From Eledone cirrhosa (Eukaryota), in assembly GCA_964016885.1 (NCBI GenBank), contig OZ024749.1, positions 5,890,001 to 5,954,000 on the forward strand: 64,000 nucleotides of DNA, given 5' to 3'. The translations under genes and the position numbers were made by a program. Numbering within the stretch: position 1 is the stretch's first letter; the number at the start of each line of letters is the position of its first letter. This document shows positions 1,591 through 63,569 of the stretch, one piece after another. The notes beneath the pieces are model-generated. The model saw nothing but the letters and a program-made list of their open reading frames with translations, was not told the DNA's origin and ran no database searches.

Positions 1591-1829
1591 TCACACACAC
1601 ACATACACACATGCAGGTGAATTAGGGTGTTCAAATATACTTAATGCACTTGACAATGTTATCTCATTTCTTATCAAATACGCAAATTGGATATTGTTTC
1701 CTGCATAAATTACTATCATTAGTATGACACCCCTCCCCCATAACACCCACCTACCACCCACTTCTAGTATTCACCAGCAAGACTACTAATGTAGATTGTG
1801 TTAGAATTTTCAACAAAAAGCTATACATG

Positions 1830-7295
<5,466 letters not shown>

Positions 7296-7299
<4 letters not shown>

Positions 7300-7752
7300 A
7301 AATAAATGGAAACTATATTTATAAAACCAATATTTATTTTCGTTATATATATTTCAGGGATATCATATTAACAATATGTTATGCCATCTTCAGACAACAA
7401 ATACACTATAAAACAGTCTTATAAATAAAATAAATAATACGACATACCCTTTCAATCACCTTGCATTTGGGAGGTTGATTTGGTTGATTTCCCAAATGCA
7501 AGGTGATTGAAAGGTATGTCGTATCTATTTATTTATTATAAGAATGTTTATATATTGTATTTTGTCTGAAGATGGCATAACATATTGTTAATATGATATC
7601 CCTGAAATATATATAACGAAATAAATATGGTTTTATAAATATAGTTTCCATTTATTTAATATCATAAATATACTCCAAATACTTGTTGAGTGCTTTTATA
7701 TCAGTTATAAATATTTACTCGTTGTTAACCCAACAATTTAAATATAACTTTC
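7296..7752 (+). mobile_element. Short fold-back Penelope-derived element (inverted arms ~7296-7472 / 7490-7661 plus tail) with HHR
   Basis: Arms are reverse complements; sequence and tail closely match the end of the element at 59430-59675; flanked by (TA)n. Confidence 0.8.
7558..7623 (+). ncRNA. Type I hammerhead ribozyme motif
   Basis: tattttgt-CTGAAGA-stem II (catatt/aatatg)-GAAA-tatata-TA-acgaaata. Confidence 0.6.
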
Positions 7753-7799
7753 CATATATATATATATATATATATATTTCCTCAAAATGAAAGCCACAC

Positions 7800-28160: not shown

Positions 28161-28192
<32 letters not shown>

Positions 28193-28195
<3 letters not shown>

Positions 28196-28606
28196 GAGGT
28201 TATATTTAATTTGTTGGGATTCAACAAGCTTAAACATTTTATAACTGATATAAAGCACTCAACAAGTTAGTGGAGGAAATACACAATATATTAATAAATG
28301 GAAACTATATCTATAAAACCATATTTATTTTATTATACATATTTCAAGGGCAACCAAGGTAAATTATGGTGCGCTTTCATCAGATAAAATACAGATTTGG
28401 TTTATAAATAAATATTGACATACCCGGAAAAAAAAAGCTCCAACCGTTAAGGTTGTCTTTTTTTCCGGGTATGTCAATATTTATTTATAAACCAAATCTG
28501 TATTTTATCTGATGAAAGCGCACCATAATTTACCTTGGATGCCCTTGAAATATGTATAATAAAATAAATATGGTTTTATAAATATAGTTTCCATTTATTA
28601 ATATAT

Positions 28607-28608
<2 letters not shown>
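28193..28608 (-). mobile_element. Fold-back Penelope-derived element with HHR in both arms
   Basis: Arms ~28284-28435 / 28458-28608; tail matching 59584-59675 in reverse; CTGATGA at 28509. Confidence 0.8.
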
Positions 28609-28671
<63 letters not shown>

Positions 28672-32443: not shown

Positions 32444-32527
32444 ACTTCCTGATGACGAAAGGTATTCTCCATGTTGCTCCATTCGGAAACCATGTTTATT
32501 CCCTTTCAGAAACTAATTAGTTGGAGT
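32444..32527 (+). ncRNA. Type I hammerhead ribozyme (predicted cleavage after 32522)
   Basis: Stem I acttc/ggagt, stem II gaaagg/cctttc, palindromic stem III actaattagt, GUU site. Confidence 0.65.
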
Positions 32528-33230: not shown

Positions 33231-33500
33231 GTTATACTTGGGGAGGGTCATATTGTAATAATATTGCCAGAAATAATAACAGAACACACTCATTGTTTGG
33301 TTGGTTTTCGCTTCTGTATCTTTAATATCAGTTAATTTATTCGGTCCTCAATGTTTACTATTGACTGACCAACCGTCAAAAATACAGATAGAATATAGAT
33401 ATAAACACATATATATAGTCTAACAAAGTTCTTTCGTTGCACATCTGCAACATCGTCAGTGGTGCTATTATGTTCCTCCTGTTGTATTATATATCTACGC
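33231..33500 (-). mobile_element. Dispersed element homologous to 59701-59985, with HHR-like core
   Basis: Minus strand CTGACGA-tgttgca-gatg-tgcaac-GAAA. Confidence 0.6.
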
Positions 33501-47667: not shown

Positions 47668-47805
47668 GATATTAATAAATAGAAAGTATATTTACAAAAC
47701 CATATTTATTCTATTATATATATTTCAAGGGTACCAACAATTCTGAACGCTCTCATCAGATATCAGATAAAATACAAAGTTTGTTTTATAAATATTGACA
47801 TATCT
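47668..47805 (-). mobile_element. Solo arm of the 7296/28193/59400 Penelope terminus family
   Basis: attaataaatagaaagtatatttacaaaaccatatt...ctcatcag...gacat. Confidence 0.65.
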
Positions 47806-51066: not shown

Positions 51067-51469
51067 ATATATATATTAATATATAGATATATATATATCT
51101 GTAAATGTGGTTGGTGTTAGGAAGGGCATCCAGCCATAGAAAACCTCCCAGAAACAGTTCTGTATGAGCGAGACACGGTCTTCCGACCAATCTCGCCTCA
51201 CATGGGACAAAACCGTCCAGCCTATGCTTCCATGGAAGATGGGTGATGATGATGATGATGATGATGATGTATATATCAATAGATACATACATATATGAAT
51301 ATGAAAATGTGATATATATATATAAATGTATATATCACACACATATATATATTGAATAATCATACATTTATTTTTAGAGCGCTGGTAAAAGTGATGTATT
51401 TGTAATTATAGTTTGGCAAGTAAATCTCTCAGAGGGAAAATTATTGTTTTAGCAGAAGAAAGACTTGAA

Positions 51470-52510
51470 GAACAACATCACCACAAACAACAACAACATA
51501 AACAACATCACCACAAACAACAACAACATAAACAACATCACCACAAACAACAACAACATAAACAACATCACCACAAACAACAACAACATAAACAACAACA
51601 ACACAAGCAACATCACCACAAACAACCATAAACAGCATAACCACAAACAACAACATAAACAACATCACCACAAACAACAACAACATAAACAACAACAACA
51701 CAAGCAACATCACCACAAACAACCATAAACAGCATAACCACAAACAACAACATAAACAACAACATAAACAACATCACCACAAACAACAACAACACAAACA
51801 ACATCACCACAAAGAACAACAACATAAACAACAACACCACAAACAACAACAACATAAACAACAACAATACAAGCAACATCACCACAAACAACAACAACAA
51901 CATAAACAACATCACAAACAACATCACCACAAACAACAACATAAACAACAACAACATAAACACTATCACCACAAACAACAGCAACACAAACAACATCACC
52001 ACAAACAACAACAACATAAACAACAACATAAACAACAACAACACAAACAACAGCAACACAAACAACATCACCACAAACAACATCACCACAAACAACATCA
52101 CCACAAACAACAACAACATAAACAACAACAACATAAACAACAACAACACAAACAACAGCAACACAAACAACATCACCACAAACAACATCACCACAAACAA
52201 CAGCAACACAAACAACAACAACACAAACAACATCACCACAAACAACATCACCACAAACAACAGCAACACAAACAACAGCAATATAAACAACATCACCACA
52301 AACAACAACACCACAAACACCATCACCACAAACAACAACAACACAAACAACATCACCACAAACAACATCACCACAAACAACATCACCACAAACAACAGCA
52401 ACACAAACAACAGCAACACAAACAACATCACCACAAACACCATCACCACAAACAACAGCAACACAAACAACAGCAACACAAATAACAGCAACAATACAAA
52501 CACTAACAAA
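51470..52510. repeat. (CAA/CAC)-rich degenerate minisatellite
   Basis: Direct. Confidence 0.9.
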
Positions 52511-53242
52511 TAAACAGGAAAGAAAATACTAAAAGCCATTTCGTTTTCCAGATTTTTAGTGTAATGGCAGTACACATTATTTCTCACCATAGTAGCCCAG
52601 CAGTTAGTATTTTAGTGTTCAATGACACACATCACATATACATACACATGTGCACACATACACCCACGTGCACACATCACACACACACACATGTGCACAC
52701 ACCACACACAGACACATACATATGTGCCCACATCACACACACACATATGCACATGTGCACACATCACACACACATACACATGTACACACACACACATGTG
52801 CACACACACACATACACACATGTGCACACACCCACACACACACACATGTGCACATACACACACACCTAAACCCATACGGGGGCTATAATCACACCTACAC
52901 ACACACCACCACACCAGTACCCTCCCCAAACCTTACACTCTCTCACTTTTTCATATTCTCTGTTTGTTTTATTACCTTTACTTTCCACTTCATATTCCAT
53001 TTTCATTTTATTTTTACCTCTACATTTCTTGTTAACTCCCCATTCACTCCTATTCATAGCCAACCCCCACCACACACACACTCTCTCCTGATGAAGGGCT
53101 TATGCCTGAAATGTCGCAACCGCACCCCCCACAATCACCAAGCGTGAAACTAATAACATTTGTAACATTTACTCCTGTGTTTGTCTGTTTTTTTTGTTTT
53201 CTGTTATTCCGAACTATATTATATATATATCTATCTATATAT

Positions 53243-53428
53243 ATAGATGATATTCTACAGGACTAGAACTGTTTCATTCTTTAGAAATCATCAGGAATCT
53301 CCTGATGATTTCTAAAGAATGAAACAGTTCTAGTCCTGTAGAATCTCATCTATATTAAAATCTTTATACTCTGCAATGTATTGAGTACCTTACTTAGTGT
53401 GGTTACCTCCGACTCAACCCGGAATAAT
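53243..53428 (+). mobile_element. Fold-back element with HHR core plus tail
   Basis: Near-perfect palindrome 53243-53353; CTGATGA at 53302, GAAA-cag...ctg-TA; tail gtattgagtac. Confidence 0.7.
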
Positions 53429-53460
53429 ATATCTATATATATATATATATTGTAATAATA

Positions 53461-55300: not shown

Positions 55301-55350
<50 letters not shown>

Positions 55351-55358
<8 letters not shown>

Positions 55359-55817
55359 ATAAATGGAAAACTATATTTATAAAACCATATTTATTTCATT
55401 ATATATATTTCGGGGATATCATATTAACAATATGCTATGCCTTCATCAGACAAAATACAATATAAACAGTTTTATAGATAAATATATTCGACATACCGTA
55501 ATAAACATCAACTTCATTTGAAGAGGTTTACGCTAGCAGTGAAAATACAGAGAGAAAGAAAGAGAGAAAGAAAAGAGGGAAAAAAAAAAGAAAGAAAGAC
55601 AAAACGAAGAAAAGGAAGAAAAAGAAGAAAAAGAAAAAGAAGAAATGCATGGGACAAAATAGAGAGATGGAAAAATAGATAAAGCGAAGAGCTTCATGTA
55701 AAGAGACAGAAAGATATATATATATATAGAGAGAGAGGAAATAGAGATAGATACATATATATATATAGAAAATTAGGTAGTGGGAGGTCATTTTGAGTAA
55801 GTGTATCAATGATACAT

Positions 55818-55848
<31 letters not shown>

Positions 55849-56854
55849 GCTCAAGTATTAATGTAAGGGAGATATATAGAGAGATATAGAGAGATATAGA
55901 GAGAGAAAAAAAAAATTTAAAAATAGCCAGACATATTCGAGGCGTATAAAACCCTATGTTTTAATGTATTAGTATTTATAAAACTTACACTACATTGTAA
56001 ATATCAGTATTCCTGAATGAAACAAGTATTCACAATGTGTGAAAATTCATTATCTTATGTTTAGTTTTAAAAAATTCATATGTTTATGTGACAGCTACAA
56101 ACATCAATGTGAATCCAACTGATTCACTCCGCAAACTTTAAGTTACCGGAAAACATTCTCAATGTGGTATAAAAATTTGAGCGTATTATTATTCTTGCGA
56201 TTACTCTACAAGATTATCTATCAAGCAGAAATAGAGAACAGATTTCAATATACTAATCGAAAATATATATTATATTATAAACAAAGATAACAATAATAAT
56301 AATAATAAGTAAAAATATATAAAAATATAGAATAGAAAACTAAAAAAATATTACGAAAGAATATTACATAATAAAATAAAAATATTGCATATTAAAAATA
56401 CTACGTATTAAAAAATATTACGTATTAAAAATTTACATATAAAAATATTAAAAATAATTAAAAATAAAATAAAAAATAAAAATATTATAGAATACTACAA
56501 TACTAAAAGAATAAAAATAAATAAAAAATAAAAATAAGAATAAAAATAAAAATGAAAATAAAAATAAACCACAAAGAACAACCCTTAAAAGTTAATTGAC
56601 AATATATTGCCAAGTTCATTACAAGACAAAGCCAAAAATTATCTATCAAATCACATCTAGCAAAGAATATCGCAAAAAGATTATGATGTCCAATAATGTC
56701 TACATATGTTCCTATATTTAATATAGAAGTTTATCTAGTGTAAGGTTAATTCAAAAAATTTGGAGCATCGGCTTTTAGGGTAGCTTAAATTTTTCATGAG
56801 GAATGTTTAGATAAAAATAAAAATAAATAAAATAAAATAAACAATAAAAAGAGT
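55351..56854 (-). repeat. Left inverted arm (inverted pLTR/3' UTR)
   Basis: Reverse complement of 58112-59583; mirror ORFs 55528-55809(-) and 59142-59420(+). Confidence 0.95.
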
Positions 56855-56858
56855 TAGA

Positions 56859-57656
56859 TTGATCGCACCTTCAAAATCGGACCTGGGCAAATTAAGCCAA
56901 AACATTCTTGACAGGGTGATACTGCAAATTAAGAACTTGAATTGTGTATCTAACCTGAGCTTGTGGAAGGGAACTGGAGAGGTTGTTGAGTGGTTTAGGC
57001 AAATTAAATATGACAATAATAATAGGTTTATTCAACTTGATATAGCTAACTATTATTCTTCTATTACCCCTAGTCTACTAAATAAGGCACTAAATTACGC
57101 ATTCAAACATACGGACCTAACTAGCAAAGAAATGCATATTATATTATCGGCTAGGAAAACTTTGATAGAATTTAATGATAAATTATGGACCAGAGCAGAT
57201 AGAGATAGCAATTTTGACATAACTATGGGATCTTCCGACTCAGCTCAGGTAACTGACCTTGTGGGCTTATTTTTAATCAATTCGCTACATAGGAAAATAC
57301 CTGGTACTACCGGAGGTTTATATAGGGATGACATGCTTTTACTTATTAATAATAATAACCCTGAACTAAATAGAAAATGTAAACAAATTACAAAATTTTT
57401 TAATTACTTTAACCTTAAAATAGAAATTGAGAACAACCATAGAATAGTCAATTTCCTAGATATAACATTAAATCTCAACACATGTCTCCACTATCCTTTT
57501 CACAAGTTGAATGAAAACTTAAACTATGTCAACTTTAACTCTAACCACCCCAGATCTGTCAGAAACACTATAGTAAACTCAGTCCAAAAACGTATCTCTA
57601 GGATCTCGTCGAATAGAAAGATTTTTGACGAAAAGGCCCTGCAACTGCTTAGTTAA
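56859..57656 (+). CDS. Penelope-like reverse transcriptase (5'-truncated)
   Basis: RLIAPSKSDLGK, FIQLDIANYYSSI, ITMGS, GLYRDDML, VNFLDITL, YVNFNSNHP. Confidence 0.9.
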   Translation: MIAPSKSDLGKLSQNILDRVILQIKNLNCVSNLSLWKGTGEVVEWFRQIKYDNNNRFIQLDIANYYSSITPSLLNKALNYAFKHTDLTSKEMHIILSARKTLIEFNDKLWTRADRDSNFDITMGSSDSAQVTDLVGLFLINSLHRKIPGTTGGLYRDDMLLLINNNNPELNRKCKQITKFFNYFNLKIEIENNHRIVNFLDITLNLNTCLHYPFHKLNENLNYVNFNSNHPRSVRNTIVNSVQKRISRISSNRKIFDEKALQLLS

Positions 57657-58032
57657 AAATATAGTATACAATTGTAATGTTAATACTGACTCTAATTCTT
57701 TTAACTACGTCGGTTCCACATCGACGGAATTTAAACTTCGCTATAATAACCACAAGAATTATTTCACAGATCCAAATAAAAAATCTTCAACGGCACTATC
57801 AGGGGTACTCTGGCAACTTAAGCTAGATAACGTTAGATATTCGACGGCTTGGAATATAGTCTCAAGAGGGATTCCTTTTAATTCATCCTCTGAGACATGT
57901 GACCTCTGCGCAGAGGAGATATTCTTTATACTAAAATCTAAAAATTCCCTTAACCTACGGACAAATTTATTCAGTTGTTGCAAACATAGATTAAACTCAA
58001 CGTTTAAATATAAATTTAAATTTAAAATGTAG
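57625..58032 (+). CDS. GIY-YIG endonuclease domain (frameshifted from RT)
   Basis: CNC, NIVY...YVGST, FKLRYNNH, TALS, CDLCAEE, LNLRT, CKH. Confidence 0.85.
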   Translation: MTKRPCNCLVKNIVYNCNVNTDSNSFNYVGSTSTEFKLRYNNHKNYFTDPNKKSSTALSGVLWQLKLDNVRYSTAWNIVSRGIPFNSSSETCDLCAEEIFFILKSKNSLNLRTNLFSCCKHRLNSTFKYKFKFKM

Positions 58033-58111
58033 TATATTTAGTTTGATTTATATTTATATGAGAACTAGCCGATAAATCTTTTGATTCCTAAATCTTTGAT
58101 TCCCTCTTTTT

Positions 58112-59098
58112 ACTCTTTTTATTGTTTATTTTATTTTATTTATTTTTATTTTTATCTAAACATTCCTCATGAAAAATTTAAGCTACCCTAAAAGCCGATG
58201 CTCCAAATTTTTTGAATTAACCTTACACTAGATAAACTTCTATATTAAATATAGGAACATATGTAGACATTATTGGACATCATAATCTTTTTGCGATATT
58301 CTTTGCTAGATGTGATTTGATAGATAATTTTTGGCTTTGTCTTGTAATGAACTTGCCAATATATTGTCAATTAACTTTTAAGGGTTGTTCTTTGTGGTTT
58401 ATTTTTATTTTCATTTTTATTTTTATTCTTATTTTTATTTATTTTTATTCTTTTAGTATTGTAGTATTCTATAATATTTTTATTTTTTATTTTATTTTTT
58501 ATTATTTTTAATATTTTTATATGTAAATTTTTAATACGTAATATTTTTTAATACGTAGTATTTTTAATATGCAATATTTTTATTTTATTATGTAATATTC
58601 TTTCGTAATATTTTTTTAGTTTTCTATTCTATATTTTTATATATTTTTACTTATTATTATTATTATTGTTATCTTTGTTTATAATATAATATATATTTTC
58701 GATTAGTATATTGAAATCTGTTCTCTATTTCTGCTTGATAGATAATCTTGTAGAGTAATCGCAAGAATAATAATACGCTCAAATTTTTATACCACATTGA
58801 GAATGTTTTCCGGTAACTTAAAGTTTGCGGAGTGAATCAGTTGGATTCACATTGATGTTTGTAGCTGTCACATAAACATGAATTTTTTAAAACTAAACAT
58901 AAGATAATGAATTTTCACACATTGTGAATACTTGTTTCATTCAGGAATACTGATATTTACAATGTAGTGTAAGTTTTATAAATACTAATACATTAAAACA
59001 TAGGGTTTTATACGCCTCGAATATGTCTGGCTATTTTTAAATTTTTTTTTTCTCTCTCTATATCTCTCTATATATCTCCCTTACATTAATACTTGAGC

Positions 59099-59133
<35 letters not shown>

Positions 59134-59583
59134 ATGTATCATTGATACACTTACTCAAAATGACCTCCCACTACCTAATTTTCTATATATATATATGTAT
59201 CTATCTCTATTTCCTCTCTCTCTATATATATATATATCTTTCTGTCTCTTTACATGAAGCTCTTCGCTTTATCTATTTTTCCATCTCTCTATTTTGTCCC
59301 ATGCATTTCTTCTTTTTCTTCCTTTTCTTCGTTTTGTCTTTCTTTCTTTTTTTTCCCTCTTTTCTTTCTCTCTTTCTTTCTCTCTGTATTTTCACTGCTA
59401 GCGTAAACCTCTTCAAATGAAGTTGATGTTTATTACGGTATGTCGAATATATTTATCTATAAAACTGTTTATATTGTATTTTGTCTGATGAAGGCATAGC
59501 ATATTGTTAATATGATATCCCCGAAATATATATAATGAAATAAATATGGTTTTATAAATATAGTTTTCCATTTATTTAATATT
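58112..59583 (+). repeat. Right arm (3' UTR/pLTR)
   Basis: See left arm. Confidence 0.95.
59477..59542 (+). ncRNA. Type I hammerhead motif in the Penelope terminus (mirror copy ~55392-55457, minus strand)
   Basis: tattttgt-CTGATGA-stem II-GAAA-tatata-TA-atgaaata. Confidence 0.6.
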
Positions 59584-59700
59584 GTAAATATACTCCAAAT
59601 ATTTGTCGAGTGCTTTTATATCAGTTATAAATATTTACTAGTTGTAACCCAACAATTTTAAATATAACTTTACATGTATATATATATATAAATATATATA

Positions 59701-60593
59701 GTTATACTTGAGGAGGGTCATATTTGTGTAATATTACCAGAATTAATAACAGAACACACTCACTGTTTGGTTGGTTTTCGCTTTTCGCTTCTGTGTCTTT
59801 TATATCGGTAATCTAATATACTCGGTCCTCAATGTTGCCATTGACTGACCGACGGTCAAAAATAATACAGATACAATATAGACACAAACACATATATATA
59901 GTTTATCATAAATCTTTCGTTGCACATCTGCAACATCGTCAGTGGTGCTATTGTTTCTTCCTGTTGAATTGTATGGCTACGCCATTTTTATTCAGTCTGT
60001 CTATATATTTTTTTATTTATTTGCTTGTTTGTTTATTTTATTTTGTCTTCTTTGCGCATGCGTTTGCGTGTGTGTATAGTGTTTTGTTTGATGTGTGATG
60101 TGTGTTCGTGATTGGGTGACTAATGTGTGTTTATGTGTTTGTTGTTATTGTGCTTGTGCATGTATTTATTTATTTATTTATTTATTTTATTTTATTTTAT
60201 TTACTTATTTATACTTCTCTTAGGTCAGTGTTGTTTGTTTGCGTGTTGTTGTTATTCCATTCATTCTTTCTCTTTAGTCTTGGTCTTCTAAGTTCTATTT
60301 CACCGGCCTCTCTGATTTGCCTATCTGCTGGGTCATTTCTATGTTTAGATATTATTGTAATTTCTATGTTGTCTATGTTAGCGTCATATTGTTGTCTGGC
60401 ATGTTCGTATAGTATACTATACGAACATGATATAAAAGACACAGAATCGAAAAGCGAAAACGAACCAAACAGTGAGTGTGTTCTGTTATTAATTCTGGCA
60501 ATATTACACAAATATGACCCTCCCCAAGTATAACAATATTTGTTTCGACACACGATTTCATATAAAAAACCTCGCAAAACTAATTCATCGCCG

Positions 60594-60595: not shown

Positions 60596-60673
<78 letters not shown>

Positions 60674-60745
60674 ATTGGTAAATGATAACGCAATTGGTGC
60701 ACAGAATAAAGCAATATATACTACGACATAGGTGCCATCTTAGTA

Positions 60746-62257
60746 ACATCCCTTAGCAATAATCCTATTTCACATCCCTTAGCAATAATCCTATTTCACA
60801 TCCCTTAGCAATAATCCTATTTCACATCCCTTAGCAATAATCCTAATTCACATCCCTTAGCAATAATCCTATTTCACATCTCTTAGCAATAATCCTATTT
60901 CACATCCCTTAGCAATAATCCTATTTCACATCCCTTAGCAATAATCCTATTTCACATCCCTTAGCAATAATCCTAATTCACATCCCTTAGCAATAATCCT
61001 ATTTCACATCTCTTAGCAATAATCCTATTTCACATCCCTTAGCAATAATCCTATTTCACATCCCTTAGCAATAATCCTATTTCACATCCCTTAGCAATAA
61101 TCCTATTTCACATCTCTTAGCAATAATCCTAATTCACATCCTTTAGCAATAATCCTATTTCACATCCCTTAGCAATAATCCTATTTCACATCCCTTAGCA
61201 ATAATCCTAATTCACATCCCTTAGCAATAATCCTATTTCACATCTCTTAGCAATAATCCTAATTCACATCCTTTAGCAATAATCCTATTTCACATCCCTT
61301 AGCAATAATCCTATTTCACATCCCTTAGCAATAATCCTATTTCACATCCCTTAGCAATAATCCTATTTCACATCCCTTAGCAATAATCCTATTTCACATC
61401 CCTTAGCAATAATCCTATTTCACATCTCTTAGCAATAATCCTAATTCACATCCTTTAGCAATAATCCTATTTCACATCCCTTAGCAATAATCCTATTTCA
61501 CATCCCTTAGCAATAATCCTATTTCACATCCCTTAGCAATAATCCTATTTCACATCCCTTAGCAATAATCCTATTTCACATCCCTTAGCAATAATCCTAT
61601 TTCACATCTCTTAGCAATAATCCTAATTCACATCCTTTAGCAATAATCCTATTTCACATCCCTTAGCAATAATCCTATTTCACATCCCTTAGCAATAATC
61701 CTATTTCACATCTCTTAGCAATAATCCTATTTCACATCTCTTAGCAATAATCCTAATTCACATCCTTTAGCAATAATCCTATTTCACATCCCTTAGCAAT
61801 AATCCTATTTCACATCCCTTAGCAATAATCCTATTTCACATCTCTTAGCAATAATCCTATTTCACATCCCTTAGCAATAATCCTAATTCACATCCCTTAG
61901 CAATAATCCTAATTAACATCCCTTAGCAATAATCCTATTTCACATCCGTTAGCAATAATCCTATTTCACATCCCTAAGCAATAATCCTATTTCACATCCC
62001 TTAGCAATAATCCTAATTCACATCCCTTAGCAATAATCATAATTCACATCCCTTAGCAATAATCCTATTTCACATCCGTTAGCAATAATCCTATTTCACA
62101 TCCCTAAGCAATAATCCTATTTCACATCCCTAAGCAATAATCCTATTTCACATCCCTAAGCAATAATCCTATTTCACATCCCTTAGCAATAATCCTATTT
62201 CACATCCGTTAGCAATAATCCTAATTCACATCCGTTAGCAATAATCCTAATTCACAT
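60746..62257. repeat. 26-bp tandem satellite, ~58 copies (cacatcccttagcaataatcctattt)
   Basis: Period of 26 counted. Confidence 0.97.
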
Positions 62258-63569
62258 TGCTTTTCTTTCTTAATAGGAAGGTAAAATAACCATCAGTGCA
62301 GAGGGGCTGATATGATCAACTACAAGGCATTTGGGGGGGGGGGGGGGGCTCAATATAACAGCCATTCCATAGGTGGAGAGTACCTGAATGGATGAGCAGT
62401 TTTTTCCCTTCCACGTTACTTAAGTAGCAGTACTGAAGACGTTCTTATGTCTACTGAAGGACAGATGTTCTCTGCTCTACTGTATCTCTACTCCTTCATC
62501 AACCTCTATCTACAAAGTAATGGCTGTATTTTATCATCAAACCAATAATATTAATAAAAAATGACTAAGTACATACCAGTTGCACAATAAATGATTATTG
62601 ACTCTTTATTACTTAGTTGTAAATATATTTTCTCATTTTATTAAGATTATTTAGTTAATAACTGATATAAAACTAGTATTTGGAGATCATTGGTTACTAA
62701 AGAGAAGCCAAGCTTCCGTGTAATGTAGCAATATACAAAGTTATTAAGCAAACAACACAAGACATGGTAGTTGATTTATTAAAACTTCTGGACAGGGCCA
62801 TATAACAGAAGAGAAATGAAAGCAATCAAAATAAAATATGATGTCTCCCCCTCAAAGTTATATTAAATAATTCCCCAGTGGATTCTGTGCTGTTTTCTAG
62901 CCAATCAATAATTATTCATTATGTAATTAGCAAATCAAACCAAATAAGAGGTGAATTTAGAATTTTAAGTACCATAACTTGAAGAAATTACAAAATATCT
63001 GCTCTTATATCCACAGAATTATATTAATCCTGACACTTTGATGTGAAATTAAACTTTCTGCCAACTTATATCATATAAATTGGTTTTGATGTGATATTTT
63101 ATGAATATTTCATGGCTCTATAGAATTACTTGAGACCTTTATTATACACAAGCTCTAAAGAAAACCAGTTTTCTCCCAAATAGAATTAATATTAGAGTAA
63201 AGAATGAAAAGTAATTAAGTATCAGTTTAAATGCTATTCTCTTCTGATGGTTCGTAATCAATAAAGTACCTAAATGACTCAAAGTGGACATTACAGACCA
63301 GCTCTGCTGGCATGCATGTCACGAAACTAAATTTATTTTCCTTACTCTGACCTATTAATGAGTATATATCATTGATATATGGAATGTCAGAATCTACAAA
63401 CTTCTCAATAAGAAATTAGCATATTTACCCTAATCAAGTTACCATACAAAATTTATTAAATTGTACACAGAAGTAGTAAGCGGATTTTCAAAATTTGGCA
63501 GATATATTAATCGAGGTAGCTAAAGAGGCTGAGCATGAACATTAACAAAAAAACAAAAACAAATAATAA

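Follow-up and report, generated by a model that had tools for sequence, protein, structure and literature searches.

How does a retrotransposon come to be preceded by an inverted copy of its own 3′ end? This question is raised by a locus near the right-hand end of a 64,000-nt stretch of Eledone cirrhosa DNA (the window, whose positions serve as coordinates here; the assembly around it comprises 3.0 Gb). A Penelope-like retrotransposon, with fragments of a reverse transcriptase (RT) and a GIY-YIG endonuclease, lies there between two arms of about 1.5 kb that are reverse complements of each other. We suggest, with a probability of about 0.75, that it is a young, 5′-truncated and internally deleted copy of an element with Hydra-clade motifs, and that its inverted arm was made by twin priming on one sense RNA. 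Much of the evidence lies in sister copies elsewhere in the genome, some of which are hypermutated from A to G.

The RT fragment gave 144 scored genomic matches at ≥97% identity. Eighty of these were taken as stretches of at most 10 kb and, together with the window, make up 81 loci, one of which (L021) holds the intact reference copy with a unit of ~4.0 kb. The intact 737-aa frame is present in 15 of the 81 loci, the window being counted among the 81. Genome-wide, short motifs matched 275 times for the RT and, for the endonuclease end, 816 times exactly and 863 or 1,090 times in degenerate form (arms counted separately). Judged from these copies, the family is a young and abundant Penelope-like element. 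Its insertion ends map on L021 to two sites ~90 nt apart, A (window 59583-59586) and B (59675-59679). Seven of the 81 loci were dropped from the end classification (one duplicate, and six of which one end fell in a gap or outside the stretch). Among the 74 left, 54 carry an inverted arm, which is thus the norm of the family. The ends of these 54 are distributed as 31 B/A, 20 A/B, 2 B/B and 1 A/A (Fisher p 1.4e-11), so that one site is used per arm in 51 of them. Both B/B loci have the same flank on either side and are therefore larger palindromes; L063 and L100 are palindromic duplications that take in ≥300 nt of flanking sequence on either side of the element, as products of later rearrangement or of assembly. 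In the other 20 copies no arm was detected at first; 15 of them terminate at B, 2 at A, and 3 are broken off. One of the two A-ended copies, L022, has a 20-nt inverted arm from B that consists entirely of tail sequence, and its long part stops at A. The rule extends to 40 further loci, where all 23 that are readable at both ends are A/B or B/A, to 16 of 17 short hammerhead pairs (16 among the matches listed, plus L146), and to the two related fold-backs in the window. (TA)n adjoins 54 of 56 inverted-arm ends and 72 of 75 right ends, which bears out the early proposal of (TA)n insertion, seen on both sides of the window copy as well. Of the 54 junctions between arms, as placed by BLAST edges, 32 show microhomology, 16 have inserted bases and 6 show neither. 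Many junctions of short pairs cluster ~60-100 nt upstream of the hammerhead core.

We propose that the endonuclease would cut both strands of a (TA)n target, and that one target 3′ end would prime complementary DNA (cDNA) at site B, the end of the tail, and the other at site A on the same sense RNA, with a second RT displacing the first cDNA. Each cDNA would stop at its own point, and the two would be joined head to head, often at microhomology, before fill-in. If both halted early, near a site ~100 nt upstream of the hammerhead, a short hammerhead fold-back would result. An RNA edited by ADAR would sometimes serve as template, and the element's RT would then fix the edits in DNA. Such a scheme has a biochemical counterpart in the experiments described in PMC11167929, where a Penelope-like protein, a predicted dimer, was found in vitro to cut and extend the two strands of its target and to initiate at two internal sites of the RNA, one at each boundary of the tail, with no need for hammerhead cleavage.

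The first-pass annotation of this locus had instead invoked 5′ truncation followed by a template-switch inversion. The truncation stands, as the RT begins at residue 196 of the intact protein, but the template switch is not favoured. In this alternative, cDNA from B would fold back on itself at microhomology and be copied back to A, and tails on short arms would arise when the arms later recombined and the middle was flipped. It would explain identical arms and the edits that they share (see below), and it agrees with the microhomology at 32 of 54 junctions and with the window copy. However, a cDNA that folds back recopies only what it holds, so a tail on the shorter arm cannot be obtained in this way. 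Of 51 young loci, 30 carry the tail on the shorter arm, so that the long arm has none of it and the short arm has nothing of the rest, and this fraction is independent of arm length (10/15, 8/17 and 12/19 by length class); flips would thus be needed in all 30, equally for arms <400 nt (the 10/15) as for long arms. Nor can a template switch yield L022, whose short arm has no sequence in common with the long part. We regard this alternative as unlikely.

The polarity and number of the templates can be read from hypermutated sister copies. Of the 92 private changes in L073, 88 are A>G and 1 is T>C; compared with the relatives nearest to it, it has ~100 A>G, which cluster from unit position 1,623 onward. 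Patterns that require G at one of two endonuclease positions gave 8 and 22 listed matches, and 28 loci from G-bearing or degenerate motif matches comprised 13 hypermutated copies, 13 of an older subfamily with balanced changes, 1 unedited and 1 unalignable (L130). L125 and L126 are apparently one duplicated insertion. Neither L146, L133 nor the 13 older-subfamily loci show hypermutation, and all 12 control loci picked by the exact motif are unedited. Pooled over 13 independent hypermutated copies, the sense strand carries 1,023 A>G, 36 C>T and 33 T>C changes; the remaining 78 copies of the sample have A>G and T>C in similar numbers (104 vs 117). The fraction of A changed depends on the 5′ neighbour (G 0.083, C 0.15, A 0.26, T 0.27; p 9e-23) and, on the 3′ side, is highest before G (0.35), then A (0.26). 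Depletion after G is given in PMC5625713 as an ADAR signature across animals. The A-to-G changes are thus likely to be inosines made by ADAR on double-stranded element RNA. The frequency of hypermutated copies has a lower bound of 14 in 863 motif matches. Editing at the RT site and at the endonuclease site genome-wide (0/275 vs 8/863) did not differ significantly (p 0.21), and a control with T-to-C motifs was confounded by a subfamily variant.

In the six copies that extend far enough upstream the clustered edits start at unit positions 1,623, 1,630, 1,681, 1,733, 1,846 and 2,155. Upstream of these starts there are 3 edits among 1,663 A, a figure that is partly circular as the boundary was set by the first cluster. 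In most hypermutated copies the edits thin out in the 3′ untranslated region (UTR). Within the sense unit, no self-complementarity strong enough to explain the edited region was found, and the distribution fits pairing with antisense RNA of truncated copies or, as the first-pass annotation suggested, with an inverted arm of the source locus. An antisense GTGAG at L021:6187-6191 (unit position 1,621), one of four GTRAG in the unit, lies 2 nt from the first L073 edit. It is a possible candidate, chosen post hoc, for a splice donor bounding the double-stranded region. Four sequencing runs searched with the intact copy gave no joint at the editing boundary, which is uninformative either way. At window position 59543 (unit position 3860), just past stem I of the hammerhead motif, A>G recurs in several of the edited copies, as well as in 5 of the 81 loci, and may be either an editing hot spot or a subfamily variant.

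Two-arm loci link these edits to the origin of the arms. Within a locus, the arms disagree at 25 of 3,197 positions that are polymorphic in the family, the figure between loci being 25%, and 56 of 93 private variants inside an arm are common to the other arm. In nine edited two-arm loci, 95 of 105 edited sites in the overlap are common to both arms, whereas between loci the Jaccard index of edited sites has a median of 0.20 and a maximum of 0.40 (≤0.24 in a same-region control). Direct alignment of the arms gave no A/G difference over 1,161, 707 and 762 columns in L107, L109 and L112, respectively, and 2 over 1,455 in L106. Since the edits are common to both arms, both arms come from one template molecule, and the strand of the edits gives the polarity of that template.

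A single template molecule with near-perfect sharing of edits would also be obtained if a full-length cDNA were made first and its sense DNA strand templated both arms from the two cut target ends. This would need no second RT to displace cDNA from RNA. We know of no free cDNA in Penelope-like elements, which counts against this possibility. In addition, the protein studied in vitro primes on target DNA at two RNA sites (PMC11167929), and we consider a cDNA-first route quite improbable.

Error is a further alternative, in that the A-to-G clusters could reflect RT misincorporation or sequencing or assembly error, or the window inversion could be an assembly chimera. The older subfamily with balanced changes, which made up 13 of the 28 loci picked by G-bearing motifs, is a warning here that motif counts alone mislead. 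Yet one substitution class follows the element's sense strand, on opposite genomic strands of the two arms, and the clusters have identical sites in both arms, ADAR-like neighbours and sharp 5′ boundaries. The arms of the window copy, for their part, differ by 2 substitutions and 6 indels, have three private variants in common and obey the end rule. An artefact is thus very improbable. Self-priming on an antisense template, proposed in PMC3846280 as a source of head-to-head inversions and consistent with the palindromic junctions of some short fold-backs, is barely credible here, since the changes, if made by ADAR, would read as T>C on the sense strand had the template been antisense; A>G prevails there by 1,023 to 33, and no T>C cluster was found in 120 loci screened.

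Several points weigh against twin priming on one sense RNA. L107 and L109, where the tail is on the longer arm, supply 80 of the 95 shared edits; L106, L110, L112 and L121, whose shorter arm bears the tail, contribute 15 shared edits and 3 unshared, and three of the nine edited loci have no shared edit in the overlap and 1 unshared. Shared edits establish one template molecule, which is not proof of an RNA template at the second priming, and a free cDNA intermediate or later gene conversion would likewise equalise the arms. The A/A loci L027 and L157, one in each of two samples, break the end rule. The start sites reported in vitro in PMC11167929 are alike on both strands. Loci were picked by best RT match or by motif, not randomly. 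Finally, the window copy taken alone, unedited and with its tail on the longer arm, also fits a fold-back.

The window copy itself is inserted between a (TA)n target on the left (55303-55350, read from the sequence, no strand) and a (TA)-rich target on the right (59680-59700, likewise). Its inverted arm (55351-56854, minus strand, by alignment) is a copy of the 3′ UTR running inward from terminus A, without the tail, and its direct arm (58112-59583, plus strand) is the microsatellite-rich 3′ UTR up to terminus A. Aligned to each other, the arms have 1,473 matching bases, 2 internal substitutions, 2 mismatches at the outer TA edge, and 6 gaps that sum to 40 bases and lie in microsatellites or short repeats. 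The near-perfect inverted repeat described at first, differing mainly in microsatellites, was therefore correctly seen, as was the presence of a tail on the right arm alone (59584-59679, plus strand, ~90 nt from terminus A to terminus B), which in tandem copies continues into the 5′ UTR. At the inversion junction (56852-56854, no strand), 3 nt of microhomology are common to the arm and the RT. The 5′-truncated RT with its LYRDD motif (56852-57639, plus strand) corresponds to residues 196-457 of the intact protein (tblastn, 98.9% to L021). It is followed by a deletion junction (57640-57641, plus strand), where 2 nt stand in place of 451 nt of the intact element, a net loss of 449 nt relative to L021. 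The frame is thereby shifted, and residues 458-608, that is, the end of the thumb and the CxCx5C linker, are gone. Because of this replacement the RT is not contiguous with the C-terminal GIY-YIG endonuclease (57642-58032, plus strand; residues 609-737, with CxxC and CxH), and the two fragments, translated over 56853-57638 and 57643-58032, are in different reading frames. The enclosed LYRDD and endonuclease motifs had been recognised from the start, but the deletion was overlooked, and the reported CNC is a product of its junction, the genuine linker motif having been lost. Between the endonuclease and the inverted repeat lies the start of the 3′ UTR (58033-58111, plus strand).

The deletion junction has a single exact match genome-wide, and we reject a deleted non-autonomous subfamily on this ground. 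The closest sampled relative of the window copy differs at 15 of 2,296 positions, so the copy is young. Only 1 of its 8 private changes is A>G, and 3 of 4 private variants inside one arm are also in the other. A transcript across it would fold into a duplex of ~1.5 kb, which had been put forward as a possible ADAR substrate; in spirit that idea holds for the hypermutated sister copies, not for this unedited one. A 91-aa frame in the arm has no family match in Pfam. Four sequencing runs searched with the window centre gave no spanning read and no joint at the inversion or the deletion, and are uninformative either way. The locus is an ordinary dead copy that cannot encode a working protein.

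The clade of the element is best judged from the intact protein. In the descriptions that PMC8557442 gives of the clades, Naiads have an N-terminal endonuclease linked to the RT by a CxC domain, an insertion in the fingers, DKA, CCHH and no canonical hammerhead. Members of the Hydra clade are described there with a C-terminal endonuclease, no fingers insertion, RWK, DKT in place of DKG, an unconserved GxKF/Y, a CxCX5C linker, no CCHH, CxxC and CxH, a hammerhead and (TA)n targets; they are generally <3 kb, a typical but non-diagnostic size. We compared the intact protein with 47 aligned homologues out of 120 listed (n=48 in all). It has the RT followed by a C-terminal GIY-YIG within one open reading frame (ORF), RWR in the region of residues 37-39 (RW[KR] in 38 of the 48 proteins), VFKS where GxKF is expected, KSDKTNNLY (DKT in 46 of 48) and a linker of the form CNC-x5-C-x5-C. 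CCHH is not present, with one unconserved C between the GIY and YIG positions, and CDLC..E and N...CKH, in 48 and 47 of the 48 proteins, have the layout of the Hydra proteins in Fig. S7 of PMC8557442. The spacing from motif A to motif B, compared by eye, matches that of Hydra-1_Obim and Hydra-2_Amil. Among named homologues the best, 36-41% identical, come from Argonauta hians. Pfam found nothing above cut-off for either the window fragments or the intact protein, and its GIY-YIG model matched only weakly in 3 of the 48 members and not in the query. A search against solved structures gave only weak RT matches, the best being a retron RT (E 0.016). These features fit a Penelope-like retrotransposon with Hydra-clade motifs, a placement made by motifs and published description. 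The first-pass annotation was right about a Penelope-like element with an inverted 5′ copy, as the single RT/GIY-YIG ORF and the structure of the family indicate, but wrong about Naiad membership, which is ruled out by the C-terminal endonuclease, DKT, the lack of CCHH and the presence of a hammerhead motif. By the same motifs the window element is a further member of the Hydra clade, and alone an ordinary one.

A putative type I hammerhead motif lies in each arm, as first noted: on the plus strand at 59477-59542, with its core at 59485-59491, GAAA at 59523-59526 and a predicted cut after 59534, and on the minus strand at 55392-55457 as the mirror of the former. The motif matches themselves span 59485-59526 and 55408-55449. 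A loose form of the motif has 23 matches in the window against 0.99 expected, and a short motif at the family's hammerhead has 6,904 genome-wide (arms counted separately). Rfam at its gathering score gave no match within the window, and free folding of hammerhead plus tail (z +0.8 to -1.6 vs shuffles) showed no added stability and is uninformative. The assignment thus draws on the motif, on a stem I that can be set by hand (8 pairs, 2 of them G-U; stem III is minimal and self-complementary) and on a core kept across the family copies. Termini A and B are both downstream of the predicted cut, so the template would be uncut or re-joined there. Upstream partial copies have scattered start positions, none at the predicted cut, and we find no support for a hammerhead-cut 5′ end as the usual template start.

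Beyond the inverted arm, the family shows partial tandems (pseudo-long terminal repeats) and a one-sided tail. Inverted arms of at least 1.5 kb are found in 16 of the 54 loci, in a sample that favours long copies, and with the structure so common its interest in the window had been overrated. Tandem units within loci differ at 12 of 1,063 polymorphic positions, a near-identity that fits a circle, strand transfer or an assembly effect. In L101-L102 (G000:C7:78,449,000-78,468,999), one partial and three full units stand head to tail over ~13 kb and end at site A, with no substitution between two of the full units. L113, L115, L118, L122, L124, L127, L129 and L131 belong to the older subfamily, in which the ORF and the last 250-400 nt align but the mid 3′ UTR does not, which suggests that the middle of the 3′ UTR was replaced or is fast-evolving.

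The window also contains other repeats. A short hammerhead fold-back of a related subfamily (7296-7757, 91% to L021), with its inverted arm from site A and its direct arm to site B, sits in a long (TA)-rich tract. Another (28175-28610, 77%) has its inverted arm from the equivalent of site B and a direct arm that ends at A; it and a solo 3′ piece at 47669-47795 (73%) belong to more distant relatives. No other fold-backs in the window resemble the family, and from their identities these derive from older relatives. A fold-back at 53.25-53.35 kb has no match to this Penelope-like family; the repeat there (53249-53430) is a fold-back of an unrelated hammerhead repeat, with two motifs head to head and a one-sided extension, and also flanks L021 (8680-8830). 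The suggestion that the present family drives short hammerhead fold-backs thus applies to the genome, where we examined short pairs, but not to those nearby. Many hammerhead-like motifs of other families lie at 12149-54398 and 59915-59942, including direct pairs at 32449/32980 and a repeat at 33432/59915. A 138-nt inverted pair (59669-59806 and 60429-60566, 88%) adjoins the element. Because L021 is flanked by this repeat end as well, the (TA)n used as target may belong to the end of another repeat family. There are also tandem arrays of 26 nt (60616-62400) and 15 nt (51400-52700) and a 5-kb tract of ~96% AT (1800-7300).

Inverted 5′ copies, one-sided tails and (TA)n targets have already been described for Penelope-like elements (PMC8557442, PMC3846280), as have two initiation sites (PMC11167929). 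The formation of tandem or inverted ends with a tail is named in PMC8557442 as an open question, and PMC3846280, in its treatment of the matter, left sense versus antisense template undecided. Our mostly open-access literature search found no report of ADAR-edited genomic retrotransposon copies and none of twin priming or template switching in Penelope-like elements, the supplements of PMC11167929 lying outside it. On balance, we favour the view that ADAR-hyperedited RNA has been written into the inherited genome in at least 1-2 per 100 endonuclease-bearing copies, that the edits barcode twin priming at two fixed sites on one sense RNA, and that neither has been described before. The significance of this rests on the family, not on the window locus. 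Edited copies test template polarity and single-template origin from genome sequence alone, and they predict a strand-displacing, two-subunit reaction. If our reading is true, this would be a natural route from A-to-I editing to heritable DNA change, in which editing inactivates new copies in their endonuclease half (L073 has 60 amino-acid changes relative to L021). Invertebrates would then have their own equivalent of the scars left by APOBEC, and the edited copies would document double-stranded RNA in cells of the germ line. The fixation of ADAR-edited RNA in retroviral proviruses in cell culture is a precedent.

Among known systems, twin priming is familiar from L1, where the two strands of the target each prime cDNA on a single RNA and the products are linked head to head through microhomology. 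There, the second primer acts at a variable upstream site and nothing is duplicated, whereas the present family uses two fixed sites close to the 3′ end and makes two copies of one stretch. Poseidon of Anolis carolinensis (PAc, PMC11167929) is similar in that initiation takes place at two internal sites, one on each side of the tail and both downstream of the hammerhead cut site, that the targets are AT-rich, and that both strands are cut and extended. However, the main text of that paper does not tie the two sites to the two arms and gives no strand difference, while in the present family each arm uses one of the sites, on a common template, and the sites lie outside the ORF. The Hydra-clade elements described in PMC8557442, such as Hydra-1_Obim and Penelope-13_HM, share the single ORF, the motifs, a hammerhead at the 3′ end (putative in the present family) and (TA)n targets, and Penelope-13_HM has a 5′-truncated inverted copy at its 5′ end. 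The present unit differs from them in its length of ~4.0 kb with a 1.7-kb microsatellite-rich 3′ UTR (1.1-3.0 kb for the Hydra families listed there), in its tail of ~90 nt (30-40 bp described), in a hammerhead motif unlike the one listed for Hydra-1_Obim, and in its thousands of insertions. The Naiads of the same account are alike in (TA)n targeting, inverted and tandem insertions and a tail, and differ by their N-terminal endonuclease, DKA, fingers insertion and lack of a canonical hammerhead. The closest parallel to the edited copies is with the vertebrate LTR (long terminal repeat) retrotransposon copies edited at the DNA level by APOBEC from G to A, for which the survey part of PMC4866542 gives none in 19 invertebrate genomes. 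Both have strand-biased, single-class clusters that date from retrotransposition, but the changes here are A>G, with the neighbour preference of ADAR, in a Penelope-like element.

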